Source of the DNA: Dissulfurispiraceae bacterium
GTDB lineage: Bacteria > Nitrospirota > Thermodesulfovibrionia > Thermodesulfovibrionales > Dissulfurispiraceae
Assembly: GCA_041477935.1 (NCBI GenBank)
Contig: JBGOVD010000001.1
Coordinates: 1-27,146, forward strand
Length of the DNA: 27,146 bases
Direction: 5' to 3'
Below are positions 1 to 12,616 of the stretch, in pieces (position 1 is the stretch's first letter; the number at the start of each line of letters is the position of its first letter). The position numbers and the translations under genes were made by a program. The notes beneath the pieces are model-generated. The model was not told the origin of the DNA, made no database searches, and saw nothing but the letters and a program-made list of their open reading frames with translations.

Positions 1-202
1 CCCAAAGTCTTTATAATGCGATAAGAAACCGTATTCAGTCGCGAATAGTAAAGTTGTCTGCGGACAAGATCCTTTTCATGAAGTAATGGGCGGGTATGAA
101 AATCATCAAAGGTATCGCTATAAAGCCTTTGGGGCATCCCTCCCAATCCTGATTTATGCATTTATCTTATAGCTAACTAGGCTTGTTTCAGGAGGAAATG
201 AT

Positions 203-2284
203 ATGAGGGAAAAGGTTTACAGCGTCTGTTCAATGTGTACTGTACGCTGCCCCATCATGGTAGAAGTGGAGGATGGGGTTGTAAAACATATATGGGGCAA
301 TCCCAACGTGTTGGGCGGAATGTATCTCTGTCCGCGCGGCGCTGCAGGGAAGGCATTTCAGTATGACTCCGAGAGGCCCCAGCGGCCGCTGATCAGGGAC
401 GGAGAGCGGGGTTCGGGAAAGTGGCGCGAGGCCTCCTGGGATGAAGCCCTCGACTATATTGCTACAAAGCTTTCCGAAATAAAAGAGACCTATGGCGCAA
501 AGAGTATCGTGTTGAGCGATCGGGGCGGCCCCATCACGGACTTTGAGAAAACTTTCATTACGGCACTCGGCTCTCCGAATTATTTCAACCACCACGCCTC
601 CTGCTCCAACAGCGTGCACAACGCGCACATGTCGGTTGCCGGGTATGCCCGGAATGGTGTCGGTTATGACTACAAGAACTGCAAGTACATGGTGGTCATG
701 GGACGGAACCTCCTCGAATCGATCGGCACCGGCGAAGCGAAGAATGTCATCGATATGCAGGAGGCAGGCGGCAAGCTGGTATATATCGATGTCCGCTGGA
801 ACTACACTGCGGCAAAGGCCGATAAATTTTTTATCATAAGGCCGGGCACCGACTATGCGCTGACACTCGCCCTGCTGAATGTCATACTCAGGGAAAATCT
901 CTATGACCACGAGTTCGTGAACCGCTGGGTTACCGGCATCGAAGACCTTAAAAAATTTGTGCTTCCTTACACCCCCGAATGGGCGGAGAAGGAAACCGGC
1001 ATATCTGCAAAAGAAATCATGAAGATCGCGCATGAGGCCCATGAGGCGAGTCCGTCTGTAGTTTTCCATCCGGGCTGGATGACGGCCTGGCGCGAGAACG
1101 ACTTTTATTTCAGGCGCATGCTCTATATCCTCAACGCCCTGATGGGAAGCTATGAGGCAAAGGGCGGCATCTTTATCAGCAAATCTCCTGCGGATGCCGG
1201 TGTAAAGTTCAGGACGCTGCTTTCACAAGTCCCGAAGGTGAGCGAGGAGCGCTTCGACGGCTGCGGCACTAAATACCCGCATCTCGGCGCCCAATGGGGT
1301 CTTGCGCAAATGCTGCCTCATGCCATCCTTACCGAGGACCCCTATCCTATCAAGGCATACATCGTCATGAGACACGATCCCCTGGCGTCTTTACCCGATC
1401 CTGAAATATTAAAAGAGGCCCTGATGAAGCTCGATCTGATCGTCTCTATAGATGTCAATTACAGCGAGACCGGATGGGTATCTGACGTTATACTTCCAGA
1501 GTCGACATACCTTGAGAGGACCGACCATGTTTTCGCGAGGACCGGACTGAAACCTTCTCTCGCCTTACGCAGAAAGGCAGTAGAGCCAAGGTTCGACAGT
1601 AAGCCGAGATCGTACATATTTAAGGCCCTGGCGGACAGAATGGGAATCGGCCAGTATTTTCCGTACAACACAATAGAGGAACTTATTGCTTGGCAGCTGG
1701 AAGGAACGGGATTTTCGTTTAAGGATTTCGACAAAACGGGCGTCATAGACCTGGTGAAGCGCCCCATCTGGATGGACCGCAAAGAGGGCCTGAAATTCAA
1801 CACGCCTTCCGGGAAGATCGAGATCATTTCGGGCAAACTCGAAAAGAGCGGGATTCCGTCATTTATCCCTTACGAGAGCCCAAAGAAACCCGATGACGGT
1901 TCTTTCTTCCTTGTTACAAGCAAGACCGCGGTGCATACGCAGGGCCGCACGACCGCGAACAACCCCATCCTGAACGAGATCGTATCCGAAAACCATCTCT
2001 GGATAAACAGCGAAGAAGCAGAGATACTCGGTATCAAGGACGGGGATGTGGTTGAAGTTTCGGCAGAAGGCGTCACACAGACCATAAAAGCCCAGGTCAC
2101 TGATTTCATTCATCCGGAAGCAGTCTTCATGCTCCATGGCTTCGGCGATTCTGTCCATTTAAGGACGCGCTCTTTCAGCAGGGGCGCCAGCGACGTCAAG
2201 CTGCAGAAGGGACTTCTCAAGGTTGCGGTGGGCGGAAATTGCCCGATGACTGAGTGCGTCGTCTCTGTGAGACGAGCGGGCTGA
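203..2284 (+). CDS. Molybdopterin (Mo/W-bisPGD) oxidoreductase catalytic subunit, polysulfide/thiosulfate reductase (PsrA/PhsA)-like, apparently cytoplasmic
   Basis: N-terminal FS0 cluster motif CSMCTVRC...CPRG begins at residue 9. Typical DMSO-reductase-family segments are present (RPQRPLIR...WREASWDEALD, IRPGTDYAL, DVILPESTYLER), plus a C-terminal molybdopterin-dinucleotide domain (VHTQGRT...LWINSEEAEILGIKDGDVVEV). Candidate Mo-ligand Cys in NHHASC resembles PhsA HASTC. No twin-arginine leader. SD AGGAGG at 190-195. Confidence 0.85.
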   Translation: MREKVYSVCSMCTVRCPIMVEVEDGVVKHIWGNPNVLGGMYLCPRGAAGKAFQYDSERPQRPLIRDGERGSGKWREASWDEALDYIATKLSEIKETYGAKSIVLSDRGGPITDFEKTFITALGSPNYFNHHASCSNSVHNAHMSVAGYARNGVGYDYKNCKYMVVMGRNLLESIGTGEAKNVIDMQEAGGKLVYIDVRWNYTAAKADKFFIIRPGTDYALTLALLNVILRENLYDHEFVNRWVTGIEDLKKFVLPYTPEWAEKETGISAKEIMKIAHEAHEASPSVVFHPGWMTAWRENDFYFRRMLYILNALMGSYEAKGGIFISKSPADAGVKFRTLLSQVPKVSEERFDGCGTKYPHLGAQWGLAQMLPHAILTEDPYPIKAYIVMRHDPLASLPDPEILKEALMKLDLIVSIDVNYSETGWVSDVILPESTYLERTDHVFARTGLKPSLALRRKAVEPRFDSKPRSYIFKALADRMGIGQYFPYNTIEELIAWQLEGTGFSFKDFDKTGVIDLVKRPIWMDRKEGLKFNTPSGKIEIISGKLEKSGIPSFIPYESPKKPDDGSFFLVTSKTAVHTQGRTTANNPILNEIVSENHLWINSEEAEILGIKDGDVVEVSAEGVTQTIKAQVTDFIHPEAVFMLHGFGDSVHLRTRSFSRGASDVKLQKGLLKVAVGGNCPMTECVVSVRRAG

Positions 2285-2304
2285 TTCAACAAAGGAGGAT
2301 AAGG

Positions 2305-2814
2305 ATGAGCATTTACTACATATACCAGGACCAGAAAAGATGCATAGGCTGCCGTGCTTGCGAGGTACACTGCAAAACGGAAAATGATGTCCCTGTGGGG
2401 CCGAGATTCGGCAGAATAATTCCCGTGGGGCCGAAGGTGATCGGGAACATCCCGCGCATGAACTTCATATTCATGCCCTGCTTTCATTGCGAGAACCCGT
2501 GGTGCGTATCCGCCTGTCCCACAGGGGCGATGAAGACCAGGTCGAAGGACGGGATAGTCTTTATCGAGCCGGCCCTCTGCGTAGGTTGCAAGGCGTGTAT
2601 TACCGCATGTCCGTGGGGAGTGCCGCAATGGGACGAAGAAACCGGCAAAGTCATTAAGTGCGATTATTGCATGCACCGGATCGACAACGGTTTGCTGCCG
2701 GCATGCGTTAGCGGCTGCACAACGAACGCTCTGCGCTGGGTATCGCCTGAAGAAGCATCCAAGCTGAAGCGGGAAAGGCACGCAAAGGAAATAGCGTCTA
2801 ACCTTCCTTATTAG
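2305..2814 (+). CDS. Four-cluster [4Fe-4S] electron-transfer subunit (PsrB/DmsB/NrfC-like)
   Basis: Motifs CIGCRACEVHC, CFHCENPWCVSACP, CVGCKACITACP and KCDYC...PACVSGC. Start moved from ORF-track 2254 to ATG 2305, which has AAGGAGG upstream and avoids overlap with the previous gene. Confidence 0.9.
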   Translation: MSIYYIYQDQKRCIGCRACEVHCKTENDVPVGPRFGRIIPVGPKVIGNIPRMNFIFMPCFHCENPWCVSACPTGAMKTRSKDGIVFIEPALCVGCKACITACPWGVPQWDEETGKVIKCDYCMHRIDNGLLPACVSGCTTNALRWVSPEEASKLKRERHAKEIASNLPY

Positions 2815-2816
2815 AA

Positions 2817-3620
2817 ATGATCATCATTACCCTCAACGGTAGGGAGAGAGAGTTTGAAGAAGGGACATCGGTACTCGAGGCGGCAAGGCGCGAAGGTATC
2901 GATGTCCCTACGCTCTGTTATCACGAATCTCTCGGCCCCTACGGAGTCTGCAGATTGTGCCTGGTGGAAGCTGAAGGACCAAGCTTCAGACGGACTCTTA
3001 TTCCATCATGCAATCTCAAGGTATCGGAAGGGCTGGTTATAGAGACCAACACCCCCCGCGTCAATGCTGCCAGAAAAAGCATAATGGAATTACTTCTCGC
3101 AAGCACTCCAAACACGGAGCCCCTGCTGAAACTGGCGAAAAAGCTCGGCGTTGAAGGTACGCATTACAAAAGTTCAAAGAGAGACAAGTGTATTCTCTGC
3201 GGTCTCTGTGTACGGGTCTGCCGGATGAAGATCGGTGCGGCGGCGCTTGATTTCGCTACCGATGGAAAGAATGACAGGACGGTTGCAGAATACGTAGCGC
3301 TATCGCAGGACAGATGCATCGGCTGCGGTTCCTGTGCCAATATCTGCCCGATCGGAGTCATCAAGGTCAAGGACAGCGGCGGCCAAAGATATATCTATCT
3401 ATACGCGCAACTGGTCAACACACTCAAACTCGTCAGGTGTGAAAGCTGCGGAGAGCCTTATACGACACAGAAGTTCCTGGATTTCGTGCTCTCACGTCTG
3501 GACAATGAAGTAAGCTCCAGAACAAAGCTGAGGATTTGTCCTGAGTGCTCGCGAGAGTATTATACGATTGCTCTGACAGGACAATTCCCCGTATTTGAGG
3601 AATTCCCTCCGATTTTGTAA
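2817..3620 (+). CDS. NuoG-N-terminus/HoxU/BamI-like iron-sulfur protein ([2Fe-2S] + 2x[4Fe-4S] + C-terminal CxxC..CxxC), copy 1
   Basis: IDVPTLCYH...YGVCRLCLVE...IPSC gives the 2Fe-2S site. Also CILCGLCVRVC, CIGCGSCANICP and C-terminal CESC...CPEC. Starts 2 bp after the previous stop. Confidence 0.85.
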   Translation: MIIITLNGREREFEEGTSVLEAARREGIDVPTLCYHESLGPYGVCRLCLVEAEGPSFRRTLIPSCNLKVSEGLVIETNTPRVNAARKSIMELLLASTPNTEPLLKLAKKLGVEGTHYKSSKRDKCILCGLCVRVCRMKIGAAALDFATDGKNDRTVAEYVALSQDRCIGCGSCANICPIGVIKVKDSGGQRYIYLYAQLVNTLKLVRCESCGEPYTTQKFLDFVLSRLDNEVSSRTKLRICPECSREYYTIALTGQFPVFEEFPPIL

Positions 3621-3628
3621 AAGCGCGA

Positions 3629-4414
3629 ATGATAAACATAGTAATCAATGGCAGGCAAATGGAAGTCGATGAGGGCATAAGCGTTCTTGAAGCAGCAAGG
3701 AACGAGGGAATCGATATCCCGACACTCTGCTATCACAAGGCACTGAAACCGTACGGCGGCTGTAAATTATGCATTGTGGAATCTGAAGGCCCGAATCTCA
3801 GAAAGATGTTGAGGCCGTCCTGCATCCTTAAAGTCTCAGAGGGACTTTCGGTCGAGACTGAATCGCTGCGAATCGCGGCCATGAGAAAAGAACTGCTTTC
3901 GCTCTATCTGTCCTTGGCGCCCCATCCGAGATCATATCTGATCGAGATGGCCGACAAGTATGGCGCGAAGCCTGTTACGCCTGAGGCAGGCGCGGATCTA
4001 TGCTCGCGTTGTACTCTCTGCGTAAGGGTTTGCCGTGAACAAATAGGAGCATCTGCGCTCACCCTTGCCAAGGCAGACGGCCCGGCCGGCGGCGCTTCGC
4101 GTTCCATTCGCTTCATCCGGGAGGCATGTTACGGCGGCGGTACCTGTGCCAGCATCTGCCCTTCGGGTATCTTGCGCATGACGGACAAAGGAGCCGAAAG
4201 GACTATGCTGATCCGTGGAAGGTCTGTCGGGACATTCGAGCTGGCCGAGTGTGAGTCGTGCGGAGCTCACTATATGACCCCGCAATATATCGACAAGGTC
4301 CAATCCCGGCTTTCTGTGGAAGAAGGAAAGATCATAAAAAAGGTCTGCCCCGAGTGTGCGCGCCGTTACTACACCGTCGCATTGACCGGGCGGTTTATCT
4401 GCGGAGAGCATTGA
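3629..4414 (+). CDS. NuoG-N-terminus/HoxU/BamI-like iron-sulfur protein, copy 2 (tandem paralogue)
   Basis: IDIPTLCYH...YGGCKLCIVE...RPSC, CSRCTLCVRVC, CYGGGTCASICP (one Cys replaced by Gly) and CESC...CPEC. Collinear with 2817-3620 over its whole length, including the shared YYT(I/V)ALTG tail. Confidence 0.85.
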   Translation: MINIVINGRQMEVDEGISVLEAARNEGIDIPTLCYHKALKPYGGCKLCIVESEGPNLRKMLRPSCILKVSEGLSVETESLRIAAMRKELLSLYLSLAPHPRSYLIEMADKYGAKPVTPEAGADLCSRCTLCVRVCREQIGASALTLAKADGPAGGASRSIRFIREACYGGGTCASICPSGILRMTDKGAERTMLIRGRSVGTFELAECESCGAHYMTPQYIDKVQSRLSVEEGKIIKKVCPECARRYYTVALTGRFICGEH

Positions 4415-4418
4415 GACA

Positions 4419-6389
4419 ATGAAAAACAGAATATTTAAATACTGGAACGAAACATACTCTGAAGAAACATCGGAACTGAGCCTCGGCGGACAGCGGATCG
4501 CCGCGGTCATCGGATGGGGCGGCATTCAGGTCACGGACCCGCAGCTGGATATCGTCGATCTCTGCTGTAAATATGCTAAGGCTTTGCAGGAGAATTCGTG
4601 CGGCCAATGCAACCCGTGCAGGACCGGAACGAGAGTGCTGGCTGAACTCTTCGAAAAGATAAGAACAGGCCATGGAAATGAAAAAGATATCGAAGATATA
4701 GAGGCACTTTCCAGGACGATCTCCGAAGCTTCGATGTGCGAGATCGGGCAGAGCTCTCCGAGGGTATTGCTCTATCTCCTGGAACACTTCAGGGATTCAT
4801 TCACCGCCGTACTCGATGTCGGCAGCAAGAACGGCAACAGGGAAGCTAATAGACAGTATACATTTCATTCGATGCTTACCGCGCCTTGCATTCAGGCATG
4901 CCCTATGCACCTGGACATTCCGAAATACATTGAAGAAATAAAGGGTGGACGGTTCAGGGAATCGCTCGAATGCATAAAGAGCAGGCTCCCGCTGCCCGGT
5001 ATCGTCGGAAGGGTATGCGTAAGACCCTGCGAATCCAATTGCCGGAGGGGACTCGTTGATGAACCTCTTCAGATACGCCACCTGAAAAGATTCGTGGCCG
5101 ACCATGCACGCGGGTGCCCGGATAGGACAACCGGATGCAGGTCCGGAGTTGAAGATACGGCTACGCAACACGAGCCACTTAAAGTTGCAATAATAGGTGC
5201 AGGCCCTTCTGGTCTCACATGCGCGTCTTTCCTTGCAAAGAAAGGTTATGATGTCACCATCTTCGAAATGCTCACAGAATCGGGCGGCATGGCATCGGTT
5301 GGGATTCCTGACTACCGCCTCCCGCGCGATATAGTTCACGATGAAGTGGCTGAAATAGAGAGACTCGGTGTAAAAATCCTCTATGGAAAGGCCCTCGGCC
5401 CCCATTTCACACTGGAGGACCTCGAAAAAGAGGGCTTCAGGGCGATCTTCATCGGTATGGGCTGCCATTGCCATAAGAGCCTGGACATAGAAGGCGAAGA
5501 TCGCGGATATTACGGGTACGTTCCGGGTGTTTATTTTTTAAAGAATATAAACCTCGGGCTGCTGGACGAAGTTCCGAAAGGGAAGAAGATGGTAGTGGTG
5601 GGCGGAGGAAATGTCGCTATCGATTGTGTGCGAACTGCCTTTCGGGTCGGATTCGATGAGTCACATATCGTTTACCGCAGATCGCGAAAGGAAATGCCTG
5701 CGGACCCCGTGGAGATCGATGATGCCGAGGCTGAGGGTGTGAAATATCATTTTCTCACGGCACCCAAGCGCATCATGGGAGAGAATGGCAAGGTCACGGG
5801 GCTTGAATGCGTCCGTATGGAACTCGGAGAACCGGATGCATCCGGCAGGAGAAGGCCCGTTTTGGTGCCGGGATCCGAATTCGTCATCGAAGCTGATGTG
5901 ATAGTAGCAGCCATTGGCCAGGAAGGTGATTTCAACTGCATGTGCAATCTGCCTGGCGTCGATGTCACCAAGAAGGGAGCAATCATCGTCGATGAAAATC
6001 TGATGACCACGAGAAAGGGCGTCTTTGCCGGGGGTGACTGCGTGACCGGACCTGATGTTCTTATCAGGGCCTGTGCTCACGGAAGGCTTGTCAGCATGGC
6101 TATAGATAAATTTCTGACTGAAGGAAAAACCGAACCACTCGGCGAGGTCCTTGAAGAGAAGTTCCTTGCAGGGTTAAAGGTTTATGATCCCGCCGAATCC
6201 ATCGCGCTTCCTGAAGGCCCCGGACGGGTGGCCGTCAAACATGAACAACCAGCAGAAAGAAAAATTGATTTCCGTGAAGTAGACAAAGGATACTCCGACG
6301 AAGAGGCAGTTTCAGAGGCAACGAGATGCCTGCGATGCTATCGCCTTGTAATGTATGCCTGCTCCGACGATGCGTCATCTCATGCCTGA
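4419..6389 (+). CDS. NAD(P)H-dependent Fe-S flavoprotein: N-terminal NuoF-type [4Fe-4S] domain fused to a GltD/SudA/SfrB-type FAD module
   Basis: SCGQCNPCRTG...ASMCEIG is the NuoF-type cluster domain. PCIQACP...GRVCVRPCESNC is the GltD-type cluster domain. FAD Rossmann VAIIGAGPSGL; pyridine nucleotide Rossmann VVVGGGNVAIDC followed by YRRSR (NADPH-type basic motif); FAGGDCVTGP; C-terminal EATRCLRC. Confidence 0.85.
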   Translation: MKNRIFKYWNETYSEETSELSLGGQRIAAVIGWGGIQVTDPQLDIVDLCCKYAKALQENSCGQCNPCRTGTRVLAELFEKIRTGHGNEKDIEDIEALSRTISEASMCEIGQSSPRVLLYLLEHFRDSFTAVLDVGSKNGNREANRQYTFHSMLTAPCIQACPMHLDIPKYIEEIKGGRFRESLECIKSRLPLPGIVGRVCVRPCESNCRRGLVDEPLQIRHLKRFVADHARGCPDRTTGCRSGVEDTATQHEPLKVAIIGAGPSGLTCASFLAKKGYDVTIFEMLTESGGMASVGIPDYRLPRDIVHDEVAEIERLGVKILYGKALGPHFTLEDLEKEGFRAIFIGMGCHCHKSLDIEGEDRGYYGYVPGVYFLKNINLGLLDEVPKGKKMVVVGGGNVAIDCVRTAFRVGFDESHIVYRRSRKEMPADPVEIDDAEAEGVKYHFLTAPKRIMGENGKVTGLECVRMELGEPDASGRRRPVLVPGSEFVIEADVIVAAIGQEGDFNCMCNLPGVDVTKKGAIIVDENLMTTRKGVFAGGDCVTGPDVLIRACAHGRLVSMAIDKFLTEGKTEPLGEVLEEKFLAGLKVYDPAESIALPEGPGRVAVKHEQPAERKIDFREVDKGYSDEEAVSEATRCLRCYRLVMYACSDDASSHA

Positions 6390-6852
6390 CAAAGAAATAT
6401 CCAGATACCAGGCTGCAAAGGCATCCGGGATGAAGACTATTCTCTTCGTCTGTTCCGGAAATTCGATCCGCTCACAGATTGCCGAAGGTATCGTAACCCA
6501 TTTATTCGGGAAGGAATGGGCGGCTTTTTCGGCAGGCACGATGCCGATGCCGGTACCGAAGGACCTTGTGAAAGTAATGAGCGAAATCGGCATAGACATA
6601 AGCAACCGGAAAGGGAAACATGTCGGCGCATTCAAAGACTGTACCTTCGACAGGGTAGTCGTGCTCTGCTCCGACGTAGACAGGATGTGTCCCGTCCTTC
6701 CGGAATGCGCGGAGCAGGAGCGTATTTTTTTCCACGACCCTCTGTCGTCAGCCATGGCGTCGGAGGGGTTTTTCATCAACTTCAAATCATCATATCGACA
6801 GCTTAGAGACGAGATGAGAAAAGTGCTTACTCACTATATGAAGGAAACATGA
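6382..6852 (+). CDS. arsC: ArsC-type arsenate reductase / low-molecular-weight phosphatase family protein (thioredoxin-coupled type)
   Basis: P-loop LFVCSGNSIRSQIAEG (CX5R), resolving pair LCSDVDRMCP (C-X6-C) and DP motif (FHDP). Start uncertain: ATG 6382 overlaps the upstream stop (ATGCCTGA); ATG 6430 (MKTILF) is the alternative. Arsenate versus phosphatase substrate cannot be decided from sequence. Confidence 0.7.
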   Translation: MPDKEISRYQAAKASGMKTILFVCSGNSIRSQIAEGIVTHLFGKEWAAFSAGTMPMPVPKDLVKVMSEIGIDISNRKGKHVGAFKDCTFDRVVVLCSDVDRMCPVLPECAEQERIFFHDPLSSAMASEGFFINFKSSYRQLRDEMRKVLTHYMKET

Positions 6853-6853
6853 T

Positions 6854-9800
6854 ATGAACAAGCTCCTGGGCATTTTTTCAAAGGGCGGAAGATGTCCGTC
6901 GCTGAAGGCGGCCCAGGGTGCTGCTGCTAAGAAATACGCCTCTTTCAAAATCTTGCTCAACCATAATCACGCGGCTCTCGATGCCATAGCCGATATGGAG
7001 AATCTTTATTACTCAGGCAACCCGTTCAGCTTGACATCCGTAAGGATAAAGTATGAGGAACTTCTCGAGGCCGTCACCGGGGTTATCATCGCTCTTGAAA
7101 CTCTCTCAGGGAAGGATTATCACGCATTATCCGATATTATGTCGGGTATCGACAGCGAGCTTTTCCGGGACTTCAATCCCAAGTGCGCGCTACCGGTCGG
7201 CAACCTCGTCATAGGGCTTGATGAAATCACCGACGACATATATCGCATGATCGGCGCGAAGGCCGCAAACCTGGCATCCATTAAAAACGTTCTGGGCCTG
7301 CCCGTCCCGCCGGGATTCGTCATTACCTCACTGGCCTTCGAACGCTTCCTGAAATTTCACAAATTGCTGAAACCAATAAAAGAAGAATTATCGCTTGTCA
7401 CCTCGGAATCGATTGAGGCGATAGAACGAGCCGGCGACCGGCTGCGCAAGATGATACTCGACGCCCCGGTTCCTCCTGAGATACGAACTGAGATTATGAC
7501 GGCCTATTCAACTCTTGAGGAGACCGCCGGAAAAGGCGTGCGCATCGCCATGAGAAGCAGCGCTGTCGGCGAAGACACAGAAGCGACCTTCGCAGGCCAG
7601 TATGATACGGTCCTCAATGTGACCGGCGAAAACATACTGGACGCATACAAGACTGTCCTCGCAAGTAAATATTCAGCAAGAGCTATTGCATACCGGCTAC
7701 ATTACGGGCTTGACGACCGCGAGACGCCGATGTGCGTCCTTGGGATAGTGATGATCGATTCGAAAGCGAGCGGCGTCCTCTACTCGGTCGACCCTTCCCT
7801 GACCCGCTCCTGCCCTGTGAGGATCAACTCCATCTGGGGGATAGGCGAGCACCTTGTCGACGGAAGCGCTTCTCCCGACGTCTTCATCATTGACCGGATC
7901 GATGAGAAGATCATCGAAAAGCATATTGAGGGAAAGGCATCGAGACTGGTGAATCTTCGTGCCGGAGGCACAGGCATTGAATCTGTCCCGGAACATCAAC
8001 GCCACCTTCCTTCCATAGATGACCGAACGATCATACAGCTGACAAGGGACGGCCTGCTGCTGGAGGAATTTTTTGAAGGCCCGCAGGACGTGGAATGGGC
8101 AGTTGATGAGGAAGACAGGGTATTCATACTTCAATCAAGACCTCTCCTTCTTCCGGAAATGACCGCGGCCCCGCAACAGCCTCCGGTCTCTTACGCCAAT
8201 CCCGTTCTCCTTTCGCAGGGCAAGACCGCCTCCGGCGGGATCGCAACCGGAAGGGTCTTCATACTGGAGAAGGAGTGCGACCTTCTGAATCTTCCTGCGG
8301 ATGCAATACTTGTCGCCAAGATCGCCTCGCCCGATTATGCCAAAGTAATCGGACGGATAAAGGGCATCATCACGGATATCGGAAGCGTAACGAGCCACAT
8401 GTCATCCGTAGCCAGGGAGTTCGGCATACCTTCAATTGTAGATACCGGCAATGCTACAACATCATTGACGCACGGCGAGATCGTCACGATGTCGGCGGAC
8501 ACCGTTACTGTATATAGTGGCATCATCGAAGAACTCGCGAGTGAAATCAGGCCCGCGAAAAAGGTGATCTTCGACAGCCCTTTGCACCGCAGGATGCGCG
8601 GAATTCTCGATCGCATTTCCGTCCTGAACCTCACCGATATAAAAGCTGAATCATTTTCCCCGGAAGGATGCCGGACATACCACGACATAGTGCGTTTCAC
8701 CCATGAAACAGCAATACAGGAAATGTTCGGCATCTCTCTCGCATCGGAGCGGAGCGGCGCGTCGGTCAAGCTGACATCGACTCTTCCTCTTGATCTCTGG
8801 CTGATTGACCTTGGAGAAGGTCTCAGAGACGGCCTGACGACATGCGACAAGGTTACACCAGAAATGATCGACTCCTCCCCGATGAAGGCTGTCTGGAGGG
8901 GCTTTACTCATCCCGGAGTGAGCTGGGCCGGCACCATGAATATCGGTACCGGCAAAATATCCGGCATGCTCGCAGCGTCGGCCCTCTCGGAATTCGGAGA
9001 GATCGCAGGTGGGGAGAGCTATGCCTTGCTGTCACGTGACTATCTAAACCTCAGCGTACGCTTCGCCTACCACTTTGCGACTATCGACACCCTTTGCAGC
9101 GATAATGCATCACAGAACTATATATCCCTCCAGTTTTCAGGAGGGGCCGGGGATTATTACGGCCGCTCGCTTAGAATCCAGCTTATGGGACACATCCTTG
9201 AGAGGCTCGGCTTTCGGACCACAATTAAGGGCGATCTCCTTGAGGCATTCATGGCACGATACGATAAAAGATCGACTGAGGAAAAGCTCGACATGGCCGC
9301 CAGGCTGCTGGCCTCCACGCGGCTTCTCGATATCACGCTCTCTAACCAGGATGAATTGGCAGGACTGACCGAGACTTTTCTTAACGGCTCCTACGATTTT
9401 CTCGCCGGCAAGACGGACAATGCACTGCCTAACCTCTACCTTCGCAGCGGACACTGGACGCTTTCAGTTGAAGACGGCCGCACCTGTTGCCTTCAGGACG
9501 GCTCCAGGTGGGGCAGACGGATAGCGTCCGGGATTTCAGGATTTATGGGGAAGGTCGCAGGCGGCACGTATCATGAATTTCTCGATACCATCGAAGCCTA
9601 CCATTATTTCCCGATGGCCATTCTCAGGAACCTGGAACTTTCGGAAGGGACAATACGCGTAAATATCAAGCCGATGGCCGGTAACATCGACAGAGCAGGC
9701 GGCATAGCCTTCGGCGTCAGGGACGTCGACAACTACTTCGTTTTAAGGACCAATGCACTTGAGGGCAATATCATTCTTTTCGAATATATTAACGGAAGAA

Positions 9801-10036
9801 GAATCGAGAAGCGTATCGTAAGAAAGAAGATCGAGACCGGAAAATGGCATAACCTCCGCGTCGATATTTCAGGGCATGACATAAAAGGCTATCTAAATGG
9901 AGAGTTGCTGATGAAGCATGACGCAGGGAGATCGTTGAAAGGGTATATCGGTCTCTGGACCAAAGCGGATTCCGTTACGTGCTTCGATAATTTGACCATC
10001 GAATCAGATGGCCGCCGCGAAGTTATCGGGTTTTAA
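6854..10036 (+). CDS. PEP-synthase/PPDK-like phosphohistidine protein: ATP-grasp + His-swivel domain + atypical C-terminal domains (no pyruvate-binding TIM barrel)
   Basis: PPDK_N motifs IGAKAANL, LPVPPGFVIT, AMRSSAVGED...FAGQYDT, SGVLYS and DVEWA...FILQSRP. Swivel domain TDIGSVTSHMSSVAREFGIP with His515 (codon 8396-8398). The C-terminal ~200 aa look like a concanavalin/DUF1080-type beta-sandwich (AGGIAFG..D.DNYF; KWHNLRV; GYIGLW; FDNL). Confidence 0.8.
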   Translation: MNKLLGIFSKGGRCPSLKAAQGAAAKKYASFKILLNHNHAALDAIADMENLYYSGNPFSLTSVRIKYEELLEAVTGVIIALETLSGKDYHALSDIMSGIDSELFRDFNPKCALPVGNLVIGLDEITDDIYRMIGAKAANLASIKNVLGLPVPPGFVITSLAFERFLKFHKLLKPIKEELSLVTSESIEAIERAGDRLRKMILDAPVPPEIRTEIMTAYSTLEETAGKGVRIAMRSSAVGEDTEATFAGQYDTVLNVTGENILDAYKTVLASKYSARAIAYRLHYGLDDRETPMCVLGIVMIDSKASGVLYSVDPSLTRSCPVRINSIWGIGEHLVDGSASPDVFIIDRIDEKIIEKHIEGKASRLVNLRAGGTGIESVPEHQRHLPSIDDRTIIQLTRDGLLLEEFFEGPQDVEWAVDEEDRVFILQSRPLLLPEMTAAPQQPPVSYANPVLLSQGKTASGGIATGRVFILEKECDLLNLPADAILVAKIASPDYAKVIGRIKGIITDIGSVTSHMSSVAREFGIPSIVDTGNATTSLTHGEIVTMSADTVTVYSGIIEELASEIRPAKKVIFDSPLHRRMRGILDRISVLNLTDIKAESFSPEGCRTYHDIVRFTHETAIQEMFGISLASERSGASVKLTSTLPLDLWLIDLGEGLRDGLTTCDKVTPEMIDSSPMKAVWRGFTHPGVSWAGTMNIGTGKISGMLAASALSEFGEIAGGESYALLSRDYLNLSVRFAYHFATIDTLCSDNASQNYISLQFSGGAGDYYGRSLRIQLMGHILERLGFRTTIKGDLLEAFMARYDKRSTEEKLDMAARLLASTRLLDITLSNQDELAGLTETFLNGSYDFLAGKTDNALPNLYLRSGHWTLSVEDGRTCCLQDGSRWGRRIASGISGFMGKVAGGTYHEFLDTIEAYHYFPMAILRNLELSEGTIRVNIKPMAGNIDRAGGIAFGVRDVDNYFVLRTNALEGNIILFEYINGRRIEKRIVRKKIETGKWHNLRVDISGHDIKGYLNGELLMKHDAGRSLKGYIGLWTKADSVTCFDNLTIESDGRREVIGF

Positions 10037-10079
10037 CTCCGGGATAAACTTACCAGCTCTAGGCTGCTCATGCGAACCT

Positions 10080-10088
10080 TGGTATAAT
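10080..10088 (+). promoter_or_regulatory. Extended -10 sigma70-type promoter (TGnTATAAT) for trxB
   Basis: TGGTATAAT in the intergenic gap after the stop at 10036 is a perfect TATAAT plus the TG extension. No convincing -35 box. Confidence 0.6.
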
Positions 10089-10094
10089 TGCGTA

Positions 10095-11048
10095 ATGAGA
10101 GTTACAGATATGACAGCTAAAGATACCTATGAGGTGATAATCATCGGAGGAGGACCTGCCGGGCTTACGGCAGGACTCTATTGCAAGAGGGCCGCAATGA
10201 AAACGGTCCTGTTCGAAAAGGGATTGATCGGCGGCCAGATAGCCATTTCGAAAGATGTGGAGAACTATCCCGGCATGGAGGGCATAACCGGTTTCGATCT
10301 GGCTGAAAAACTGCTTCATCAGACCCAGACCTTCAACCTGCCTATCGTCCAGCAAACAGTTTCAGAAATAATCGTCGGCCCTGACCTTCACTCAGTCAGG
10401 CTCGACAATGGCGACCTGCTAAACAGTGTTGCCCTTATCCTGGCTGCGGGCGGCTCGGTGCGAAAACTGGGAATCCCCGGCGAAGCTGAATATCTCGGGA
10501 CCGGCGTTTCCTATTGCGCGACCTGCGACGGCTTCTTTTTCAGGGACAAAACCGTCGTCGTTATCGGCGGCGGGGACACAGCAGTTGAAGAGGCCCTCTA
10601 TCTGGCACGACTGACGCGCAAGGTGCGCCTTATTCACAGAGGCAATGCCCTGCGGGCAAGCAAAATACTTCAGGATCGCCTGATGAGCGAGCCCAGGATC
10701 GAAATAATCTGGGATACAGTCATCTCCGAAATCAAGGGAAGCGGAAGCGCCGTGAATGCCGTCTCCTTCGAAAATACCAGGACCGGGGAAAGGGGAGAAT
10801 TGCCGACGGAAGGAGTGTTCATCTTCATAGGGTATTCTCCGAACAATCAATTGATACCGGCAGCAGTCAGAATGGACGATCGCGGCTTTATAATTACCGA
10901 TGAAAAATGTGAGACGAATGTGCCGGGTATTTTTGCGGTCGGAGATTTGAGACATAAGTTCGCCAACCAGATCGTAGTCGCAGCAGCTGACGGCTGCGTG
11001 GCTGCGCTGGCATCCGCTCACTATGTGGAGTTGCATAAAACCGGATAA
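10095..11048 (+). CDS. trxB: Thioredoxin-disulfide reductase
   Basis: VIIIGGGPAGLTAG, GGQI, active site GVSYCATCDGFF, VIGGGDTAVEEA, GVFIFIG and TNVPGIFAVGD. The ORF-track start at 10008 overlaps the upstream gene; the likely start is ATG 10095 or 10110. Confidence 0.92.
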   Translation: MRVTDMTAKDTYEVIIIGGGPAGLTAGLYCKRAAMKTVLFEKGLIGGQIAISKDVENYPGMEGITGFDLAEKLLHQTQTFNLPIVQQTVSEIIVGPDLHSVRLDNGDLLNSVALILAAGGSVRKLGIPGEAEYLGTGVSYCATCDGFFFRDKTVVVIGGGDTAVEEALYLARLTRKVRLIHRGNALRASKILQDRLMSEPRIEIIWDTVISEIKGSGSAVNAVSFENTRTGERGELPTEGVFIFIGYSPNNQLIPAAVRMDDRGFIITDEKCETNVPGIFAVGDLRHKFANQIVVAAADGCVAALASAHYVELHKTG

Positions 11049-11318: not shown

Positions 11319-11339
11319 CACTAGTGTCCGACAGGTTTC
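11319..11339. repeat. IS terminal inverted repeat (transposase 3' side)
   Basis: CACTAGTGTCCGACAGGTTTC; matches the reverse complement of 12617-12637 at 18/21 positions. Confidence 0.85.
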
Positions 11340-12498
11340 ATAACAAAATCAGTTGGTTGCCGTTATCATTCTCATTTTGATCCGGTACCATATCTGTAAG
11401 CAGTTGAAGCACTGGTGTTTTTTCGAACGGAGTCACGCTCAGGATTTGTAACATCGAATGCAAAGACAGATCAAGTTTCATACGCTTTTTGACAATGGCT
11501 ACCAGCACGTACGTGGCTACGGCGATCCACACTTGTGTCTTGACGGCATTCTCCGAAGTGCCGAAGAAGCGCTTGATACGAAGGTGCTGCTTGATCCATT
11601 TGAAGAAGAGTTCCACCTGCCAGCGACTTTTGTAGAGGGCGCAGATGGTCAACGCTGGAAGCGTGGTGTTGTTGGTAAGAAACACCAAGCGCCTGCCTTC
11701 CGGGTCCGTGTAGCGTATACGTCTGAGCCGTTCGGGATAGGCTTGTTGAGAGTAGAAAACCACAAGCTCGACCAGTTGGTCGCACATCAGGCCGGTGCTT
11801 CGATCTACCGGATTGGAATAGACGCGACGGAACTTGGAGTTGGACTTGGCTCGGGTTACAAAGAAGCTGCCTGCTTGATGCAAGCGGTAGAGCCGCTCGA
11901 AGTCGAGATAGCCGCGGTCCATCACATAGAAAGCGCCTGGTTCTGGCACGAGCAAATCCAGAACGTTGACATCGTGCATCTTGCCGTCGCTGATATGGAT
12001 GAAAGTTGGAATGGCGCCTCGCAAATCGAGAAGGGTATGCAGTTTCACCGCAGCCTTTGTTTTGCGAAACTCGGCCCAGGGAAACAACTTCAGACATAGA
12101 TCGACTGTGGTGGAATCCAGCGCATAGACTGTTTCCGAAAGGTCGACGGCCAAAGGTTCGTTGGCATAAAGCCGTCGGGCAATGCGGATAAGCGCTTGCG
12201 CAAATTCGAAATAGATTCGCCAGTCTCGGGTTTCGTTGGCGTCGGCTATAGCACTGCGACTGACCTTGCCACGAATGCCCAAGTGATAGAGTTTCGCGGA
12301 CTGGGAACGCAGGCAGGCCTCGATGTCCCGCAGACTCTCCCTGTAAGTCAGTTGGGCAAAAGCCATGCATAGAAACTGGTCCAAGCAGCTGAAGCTGCGT
12401 ACGTTGAAGTCGCCGCAATGCTTCTCCACCGCGCGGCGAAAAGTATGCCATGGTGCAAATTCCATCACTTGGGCGAAGACGAGTTTGCCAGCGAACAT
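11338..12498 (-). CDS. IS4-family DDE transposase
   Basis: N-terminal MFAGKLVFAQ. Catalytic motifs YALDSTT (D), YVMDRGY (D) and YKSRWQVELFFKWIKQ (Y-2-R-3-E-6-K signature of the IS4 family). ATG at 12498 has SD GGGAGG 5 nt upstream. Frame uninterrupted. Confidence 0.92.
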   Translation of the reverse strand: MFAGKLVFAQVMEFAPWHTFRRAVEKHCGDFNVRSFSCLDQFLCMAFAQLTYRESLRDIEACLRSQSAKLYHLGIRGKVSRSAIADANETRDWRIYFEFAQALIRIARRLYANEPLAVDLSETVYALDSTTVDLCLKLFPWAEFRKTKAAVKLHTLLDLRGAIPTFIHISDGKMHDVNVLDLLVPEPGAFYVMDRGYLDFERLYRLHQAGSFFVTRAKSNSKFRRVYSNPVDRSTGLMCDQLVELVVFYSQQAYPERLRRIRYTDPEGRRLVFLTNNTTLPALTICALYKSRWQVELFFKWIKQHLRIKRFFGTSENAVKTQVWIAVATYVLVAIVKKRMKLDLSLHSMLQILSVTPFEKTPVLQLLTDMVPDQNENDNGNQLILL

Positions 12499-12616
12499 GA
12501 GCACCTCCCGGATATGTCCGGAAAGCCTGACTGAAAACCGCTGTCTCGTTCAAGTCGTTAACACTCATAAAAGCCGTGGAAGTAGCGCCAATGTAAGGTT
12601 TCAAGGAAATAACCCC

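Follow-up and report, generated by a model that had tools for sequence, protein, structure and literature searches.

The window analysed here is the 27,146-nucleotide stretch at positions 1 to 27,146 of the forward strand of contig JBGOVD010000001.1, from a Dissulfurispiraceae bacterium of the phylum Nitrospirota (assembly GCA_041477935.1), and the gene in question is an open reading frame of 1060 amino acids at 6854–10036. The best explanation of this gene is that it encodes a cytoplasmic, ATP-driven phosphohistidine phosphotransferase. Its ATP-grasp and swivel domains, of the phosphoenolpyruvate (PEP) synthase type, are intact. In place of the PEP/pyruvate barrel, modelling shows a conserved domain of ~280 residues, with a predicted fold that has no clear solved relative, and throughout the family the dikinase gene has a phosphatase as its partner. 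We put at about even the chance that the protein is the kinase arm of a kinase/phosphatase switch acting on the uptake and reduction of sulfur oxyanions. The gene and its parts are as follows.

6854–10036, + strand: barrel-less PpsA-like phosphotransferase, whole gene, 1060 amino acids (open reading frame)
6854–7204, + strand: N-terminal extension of ~117 amino acids, matching no family, with few positions conserved across the family
7247–8146, + strand: ATP-grasp nucleotide-binding domain (PPDK_N), residues 132–431 (Pfam; alignment to solved PEP synthases)
8294–8503, + strand: phosphohistidine swivel domain, residues 481–550, with the His515 codon at 8396–8398 (Pfam)
8576–9403, + strand: family-specific middle domain, residues ~575–850, presumed phosphoryl-acceptor site (alignment; AlphaFold2 model)
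9428–10006, + strand: concanavalin-like beta-sandwich (CBM66/DUF1080-like), residues 859–1051 (structure match, Foldseek, PF21708)

Domain architecture of the phosphotransferase

In the Pfam search, PPDK_N (PF01326) was found at residues 132–431 with an E value of 4e-82, and the PEP-utilizers mobile domain (PF00391) at residues 481–550 with an E value of 1e-18. Residues 118–568 align with the solved PEP synthases 8a8e, 9dae and 2ols at E values of 1e-60 to 1e-64, and the TSH histidine motif (residues 513–515) coincides with that of the solved enzymes. In the alignment of relatives of at least 800 amino acids, His515 is invariant in all 215 proteins. These results agree with the sequence-only reading, an earlier interpretation made from the letters of the DNA, which had described an intact ATP-grasp domain and a swivel domain carrying TSH and His515; the other motifs that it quoted were located at residues 606–618, 730–745 and 760–764, as it had stated. 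Position 513 is Thr or Ala among the 215 relatives, and family-wide regulation by way of this Thr, known from PpsA and PPDK, was rejected because the residue is often Ala. The N-terminal extension has no Pfam match, and the scan for promoters and terminators gave nothing above chance.

No match to the barrel domain PEP-utilizers_C (PF02896) was found when the whole protein was searched with Pfam. The best NCBIfam matches are the PEP synthase models TIGR01418 and NF005057, which are matched over the first 470 of ~790 positions only and score below their curated cut-offs (340.7 against 598 bits, and 328.8 against 739.75 bits). AlphaFold2 models were computed for residues 556–1060 (pLDDT 75.5) and for residues 560–862 (pLDDT 82, with a core above 90), and the C-terminal half forms two domains in these models. 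The model of residues 560–862 shows an alpha/beta fold with an antiparallel sheet, which is not an eight-fold beta/alpha barrel, and the hhalign comparison of the middle domain with the canonical barrel of the same genome gave a probability of 2%. The absence of the PEP/pyruvate barrel, which had been noticed as a lack of its motifs, is thus confirmed by the missing PF02896, the non-barrel model and hhalign. Structure prediction of residues ~560–850 had also been proposed in that reading, and AlphaFold2 with Foldseek gave a non-barrel fold there. Its wider claim, that the protein is an ATP-grasp/His-swivel phosphotransferase with a substrate other than pyruvate, is supported.

The middle domain was compared with known structures by several routes. 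The Foldseek search of the Protein Data Bank (PDB) with the middle-domain model gave no clear relative (best E value 0.058), and VIA-align against 48,161 chains gave a best Z of 6.0, which is in the range of this tool for unmatched models. Nothing was found for the domain in the Swiss-Prot fold search of the AlphaFold Database (AFDB) or in the PDB sequence search with its profile, and the language-model Atlas search gave no usable match. Likenesses to the phosphagen kinase/McsB fold and to the folds of type III secretion system chaperones and YbjN were faint and below the noise, and were not used. The motif C-[RK]-[TS]-x-H at residues 606–610 aligns weakly with CRTEH of the first strand of the barrel, both lying ~48 residues past the swivel domain, and may be a remnant of the barrel. 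Among 59 diverse members, H610, D611, R614, H617, Y730, N732, H740, G763, G764, R774 and D826 are invariant, and E618 and C606 are each kept in 58. In the fold search, a Pseudomonadota cluster of 655 amino acids (40% with PhoU_div, DUF47) resembles the middle domain with a TM score of 0.50. DUF47 proteins usually accompany PiT-type anion permeases, and the modelled resemblance may be another link to permease control.

The C-terminal domain has a well-known fold. Residues 859–1051 superpose on the CBM66 domain of Bacillus subtilis levanase (4b1m) with a VIA Z of 24 and a root-mean-square deviation of 1.5 Å over 154 residues at 21% identity, and Foldseek matches them to CBM66 at an E value of 1e-11. 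The Pfam family PF21708 scores 28.1 bits on this domain, just over its cut-off of 27, and PF06439 scores 20.2, under its cut-off of 26.8. A beta-sandwich starting at about base 9420 had been recognised from the sequence, and the structure match and Foldseek place its start at 9428.

Distribution and genomic partners of the family

The C-terminal half of the dikinase has at least 668 homologs, nearly all in proteins of ~1060 amino acids, and the middle domain alone occurs in 1137 representative clusters at 50% identity, 520 of them at an E value of 1e-30 or better. The unusual architecture is therefore not a product of chance. The family is large, and a pattern scan found the lectin-bearing subfamily in at least 486 species genomes. 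Nitrospirota and Desulfobacterota account for most of these genomes; the others include some sulfur-oxidising Betaproteobacteria and one metagenome-assembled genome of Chloroflexota. Most of the middle-domain clusters are proteins of 820–870 amino acids consisting of ATP-grasp, swivel and middle domains, in which the lectin domain is absent; these short relatives match the middle domain of the window protein at E values of 1e-50 to 1e-60. Because most of the family has the middle domain without it, the lectin-like domain, for which the sequence-only reading suggested a part in substrate recognition, cannot be the main acceptor site, and the CBM66-like domain appears to be an add-on of the subfamily.

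In the phylum of the window, the middle domain occurs in 44 of 151 genomes and falls into two size classes, both of which are present in several genomes. The genome of the window is such a case: contig C35 (2–9752) encodes a lectin-less short paralog of at least 850 amino acids, which has the middle domain in common with the window protein, and the opposite strand nearby carries genes for a receiver, a PAS sensor kinase, a Usp protein, a protein of 250 amino acids with no assignment and a TauE permease. Another Nitrospirota genome (L102, G086:C11:274102-277499) carries two short-type paralogs in tandem. Since the genome of the window also encodes a canonical barrel-bearing dikinase, on contig C299, the window gene is dispensable for PEP synthesis.

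When the AFDB clusters were searched with the model of the middle domain, Q72FG7, a protein of 744 amino acids, was returned (E value 8e-27, 33% identity). This protein is taken to be DVU0246 of Desulfovibrio vulgaris because the 2235 bp of that gene correspond to 744 codons plus a stop and because of the style of the accession, and the middle-domain family very probably includes DVU0246. In the description by Korte et al. (2014, PMC4001038), the only domains of the product, named 'pyruvate phosphate dikinase', are the ATP-grasp and the mobile domain. Its gene belongs to the Desulfovibrio 'nitrate cluster', which comprises the TauE-like permease DVU0251, a hypothetical protein, a PtxB-like binding protein, a sensor kinase, the receiver DVU0247, the dikinase DVU0246 (2235 bp) and the dual-specificity phosphatase (DSP) DVU0245 (PMC4001038); the contig C35 locus is of this kind. 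Transposon mutants in DVU0246, DVU0247, DVU0250 and DVU0251 grow at 100 mM nitrate, and the D. vulgaris phosphatase mutant (DVU0245) is still inhibited by nitrate; Korte et al. suggest a leaky thiosulfate transporter, and the G20 mutants are mildly sick on thiosulfate (PMC4001038). In the literature we found no characterisation of the gene combination or of ChrA/ChrB together with a PEP synthase, and in later work no biochemical characterisation of the family or of DVU0246 and Dde_0604. The remark in the sequence-only reading that barrel-less proteins of this kind are common in sulfate-reducing bacteria and uncharacterised holds for the family of DVU0246.

Phosphatases were examined as partners in a survey of 81 lectin-type loci, in which the neighbours were clustered, and on a tree of 79 C-terminal halves. 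The recurrent neighbour families in the survey are HD, MFS, ChrA, ChrB, LMWPc, histidine kinase, DSPc and PP2C. A phosphatase lies at most four genes away in 42 of the 81 loci, and a phosphatase gene is found within 5 kb in at least 43 of the 79. The type of the partner phosphatase switches at least 11 times on the tree; LMWPc, DSPc and PP2C are mutually alternative, and HD may co-occur with them. The PP2C partner belongs to the Stp1/IreP type of Ser/Thr protein phosphatases. Members of the family are also found fused to protein phosphatases of three unrelated kinds, which counts in favour of a switch: LMWPc at the N-terminus of some relatives (P0044, P0123 and others), PP2C at the C-terminus of P0085, and DSPc in place of the lectin domain in the lectin-less P0252. 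The proposal that the dikinase forms a kinase/phosphatase pair with the upstream low-molecular-weight protein tyrosine phosphatase (LMW-PTP) to regulate the molybdoenzyme is strongly supported in its first part, by the fusions and by the phosphatase genes that adjoin the dikinase in about half of the 81 loci. Its second part does not hold generally, as the molybdoenzyme is present in the nearest relatives only.

Permeases and two-component genes are further partners. A ChrA, MFS or TauE permease is likewise at most four genes away in 32 of the 81 lectin-type loci, and across the whole family the partners are anion permeases (TauE, ChrA, MFS), ChrB and pairs of sensor kinase and receiver. In 20 short-type Nitrospirota loci, the sensor kinase, the receiver-only protein and the dikinase are almost always found together, and TauE lies within 10 kb in ~13 of them. 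The short relatives in public assemblies show a dikinase followed by a DSP gene, or a receiver followed by a dikinase; another arrangement is a phosphonate-binding protein, a kinase, a receiver and a dikinase-DSP fusion.

The genes beside the dikinase in the window are the following.

203–6389, + strand: upstream block of Psr/Phs-like molybdoenzyme, 4Fe-4S subunit, two HoxU-like Fe-S proteins and GltD-like flavoprotein
6382–6852, + strand: partner phosphatase of the LMW-PTP/ArsC type (Pfam LMWPc), stopping 1 base short of the dikinase start
10008–11048, + strand: thioredoxin reductase, trxB (TIGR01292, 360 bits, above cut-off), overlapping the dikinase stop

The operon is tightly packed with enzyme genes; its Psr/Phs-like molybdoenzyme is leaderless, the GltD-like flavoprotein is of the NAD(P)H type, and neither a sensor kinase nor a receiver is encoded in it. 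The partner phosphatase has the CX5R loop, the Cys triad C33/C105/C112, which resembles that of thioredoxin-coupled ArsC, and the DP motif. The other LMWPc partners and the fused copies keep the loop and the DP motif too, and nearly all of them retain the three cysteines. Against the NCBIfam models of ArsC (thioredoxin) the partner phosphatase scores below the cut-offs (87.5 against 215 bits, and 83.2 against 174.3 bits). The window is a complete contig and begins 200 bases before the molybdoenzyme gene, where relatives carry a split TauE pair, so that any such pair would lie outside the window. The split pair is found upstream in L001, L002, L003, L005 and L014, and the same upstream gene order, with split TauE first, in L001, L002 and L005. 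The operon of the nearest relatives thus reads TauE, TauE, molybdoenzyme, Fe-S subunit, NAD(P)H module, LMWPc and dikinase. In L003 and L014 the gene order is kept and a different redox module replaces the HoxU-like and GltD-like subunits. The molybdoenzyme was rejected as a conserved target because it is restricted to this one small clade.

Several details of these loci were observed in addition. In L003 (7093–8889) and L014, which have LMWPc-fused dikinases, the replacement module is a single protein made of Fer4, a pyridine-nucleotide-disulfide oxidoreductase and a rubredoxin-like C-terminus. In L001 (580–2271), and also in L002, L003 and L005, the first gene of the split TauE encodes ~425 amino acids, namely an N-terminal extension of ~280 amino acids without a family match and the first half of the permease, and the second gene, of 129 amino acids, encodes the second half; the extension could be a target of regulation. 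The called start of trxB overlaps the dikinase stop by 29 bases (10008–10036), and the thioredoxin reductase model aligns from residue 41, so the true start may lie further downstream. Directly past trxB, an IS4-type DDE transposase (DUF4372 and DDE_Tnp_1) at 11338–12504 on the minus strand bounds the operon at its 3′ side. A minus-strand open reading frame from ~136 runs off the contig end (window 1–136).

The proposed switch and its competitors

In the proposed switch, the beta-phosphate of ATP would be loaded onto His515 with release of adenosine monophosphate (AMP) and phosphate, as in PEP synthase, and the swivel domain would carry the phosphate to the middle domain. The acceptor site would be formed there by the invariant His/Asp/Arg/His-Glu, Tyr-x-Asn, His, Gly-Gly and Arg residues, and the phosphate would most likely end up on a side chain of a protein, either a partner or the enzyme. 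Dephosphorylation would then fall to the ArsC-type LMW-PTP encoded upstream. By this cycle the pair could switch the import of a thiosulfate-type sulfur oxyanion through a TauE-type permease and its reduction by the operon's cytoplasmic Psr/Phs-like enzyme, and the CBM66-like domain would probably give the input or docking that a sensor kinase and a receiver give in the shorter relatives. We favour this switch because the replaceable partners are classical protein phosphatases, because one-chain kinase-phosphatase fusions are usual for switches, because the short relatives are linked with two-component systems, and because the kinase and phosphatase mutants of D. vulgaris show opposite phenotypes. 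More broadly, the family might be a new class of bacterial protein kinase, which would use ATP-grasp/swivel-His chemistry and an acceptor domain of new fold without a Hanks or histidine-kinase core, would be reversed by LMW-PTP, DSP or PP2C, and would gate anion permeases of the sulfur cycle; this broader proposal is tentative, and we consider it doubtful rather than probable.

Several observations weigh against the switch. To our knowledge, the substrates of all characterised barrel-less swivel dikinases are small molecules, and the charged residues that are invariant in the middle domain resemble the active site for a small substrate. Both the protein acceptor and its phosphorylation are hypothetical. 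Permease partners from three unrelated families would fit poorly with direct phosphorylation of the permease, and the tight position within the operon suits an enzyme as well as a regulator. No phosphatase was found near the short-type dikinases in the 20 Nitrospirota loci. As to Desulfovibrio, we infer the identity of Q72FG7 with DVU0246 from length and accession style alone, and the D. alaskensis phosphatase mutant is unlike that of D. vulgaris (PMC4001038).

The main rival is a small-molecule dikinase that would phosphorylate, process and dephosphorylate its substrate: the middle domain would bind a metabolite or an imported anion, once phosphorylated, this compound would be trapped or activated for use by the molybdoenzyme or by a different enzyme, and the phosphate would later be removed by the phosphatase. 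The acceptors of rifampin phosphotransferase, phenylphosphate synthase and the CreHI/HpeHI types are small molecules, and some of these pathways include a phosphatase. This precedent of barrel-less swivel enzymes, the enzyme-like invariants of the middle domain (His, Asp, Arg, Glu, Asn, Tyr and a Gly-Gly-x-x...Arg loop) and the place of the gene within a tightly packed enzyme operon all agree with such a route. However, no processing enzyme recurs throughout the family, a kinase and a phosphatase fused in one chain would only cycle futilely if the substrate were a free small molecule, and the sensor kinase/receiver partners and the Stp1-type PP2C indicate signalling; we regard this rival as unlikely, though likelier than the other alternatives. 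The proximity of two-component genes also raises an unorthodox phosphorelay from His515 through a His of the middle domain to the Asp of a receiver protein. Receiver-only genes stand directly upstream of short relatives, as DVU0247 does, H610, H617 and H740 are invariant, and H617 with the adjacent E618 on a long helix resembles the H-box of histidine kinases. This resemblance was judged by eye only, though, a receiver is absent from the window operon and from most lectin-type loci, and the loci that do have receivers already have a canonical sensor kinase, which makes the relay improbable.

The remaining explanations are weaker. The phosphorelay and the next two proposals are all less likely than either the switch or the small-molecule route. 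If the CBM66-like domain bound a polysaccharide that was then phosphorylated, the protein would be a glycan dikinase like plant glucan water dikinase with its SEX4/laforin-type phosphatase, and the C-terminal fold is indeed very close to that of a true carbohydrate-binding module, with DSP-type phosphatases as partners in some loci. Such a role is very improbable, since most members have the middle domain without the lectin domain, no glycan-metabolism genes recur among the neighbours in the 81 lectin-type loci, and the protein is cytoplasmic and encoded in an oxyanion-reduction operon. It would be equally surprising if the dikinase phosphorylated an inert oxyanion for reduction by the ArsC-type partner through its Cys triad, recycled by thioredoxin and trxB. 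The full triad in the LMWPc partners, the position of trxB directly 3′ of the dikinase and the recurrent oxyanion permeases are consistent with this chemistry, but PP2C and HD partners, which are incapable of thiol chemistry, replace or accompany LMWPc, trxB adjoins the dikinase in the tblastn survey only here and in L004, and the chemistry has no precedent. Finally, public annotation names the protein 'pyruvate, water dikinase', and the top NCBIfam models are those of PEP synthase, which would make the protein an ordinary PEP synthase or pyruvate phosphate dikinase. The partial coverage and sub-cut-off scores of these models, the absence of PF02896, the non-barrel AlphaFold2 model and the canonical enzyme elsewhere in the genome leave this annotation a practically negligible probability; at the level of sequence and model it is refuted.

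Significance and comparison with known systems

The Desulfovibrio 'nitrate cluster' sets nitrate sensitivity, a trait relevant to the control of oil-field souring, and this family is its unexplained core. The identity of the acceptor would explain how the uptake of thiosulfate-type anions is controlled in these bacteria, and could reveal a new type of kinase-phosphatase switch together with a new catalytic fold. Members are routinely annotated, wrongly, as PEP synthase or pyruvate phosphate dikinase, and reconstructions of carbon metabolism in sulfate reducers and sulfur disproportionators are distorted as a result. A case that may belong here is the 'PEP synthase' DITHS69_1988 of Dissulfuribacter thermophilus, which in a proteomics study of 2026 increases by 3.4 log2 units in thiosulfate disproportionation and was read as gluconeogenic, and which is numbered beside the TauE-family genes 1989 and 1990 (PMC13490349). 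The same paper gives this protein two tags, DITHS69_1988 in Table 2 and DITHS69_1161 in section 3.2.1 (PMC13490349). If the former is right, the gene adjoins the TauE genes and may encode a barrel-less member instead of a gluconeogenic enzyme.

The PEP synthase PpsA (TIGR01418; 2ols, 8a8e, 9dae) has the same order of ATP-grasp and swivel domains and the same TSH motif as the window protein, whereas the window protein is without the PEP/pyruvate barrel and scores far under the family cut-offs. Rifampin phosphotransferase (NF041857) likewise reuses the ATP-grasp/phosphohistidine chemistry on an acceptor other than pyruvate. Its swivel domain, however, is C-terminal and its substrate domain in the middle, while the swivel domain of the window protein is central (residues 481–550) and is followed by the new domain; the acceptor domains are dissimilar, and the window protein scores 240 against a cut-off of 999 bits (NF041857). 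The CBM66 domain of B. subtilis levanase SacC (4azz, 4b1m) and DUF1080 have the same fold as residues 859–1051, but the window domain is cytoplasmic and fused to a kinase, and carbohydrate binding by it is putative. In glucan water dikinase and in enzyme I of the phosphotransferase system, the swivel His passes phosphate to a polymer or a protein, and glucan water dikinase is opposed by a dedicated phosphatase (SEX4/LSF2). The acceptor domains and the domain order of these two enzymes are unrelated to those of the window protein, and enzyme I uses PEP instead of ATP.

The closest likeness is with DVU0246 and Dde_0604. DVU0246 is known from mutant phenotypes and not from biochemistry, and the window protein can be described as a lectin-bearing, LMW-PTP-paired variant of a family known genetically rather than biochemically. 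The Desulfovibrio proteins share with it the ATP-grasp domain, the swivel His and the same family-specific middle domain, they are encoded beside a cysteine phosphatase and a TauE permease (the latter found in the relatives of the window protein), and their hosts too are anaerobes of the sulfur cycle. Compared with DVU0246, the window protein has an additional CBM66-like domain and an ArsC-type LMW-PTP as its partner instead of a DSP, and its gene sits, without a sensor kinase or a receiver, in the operon of a cytoplasmic molybdoenzyme.

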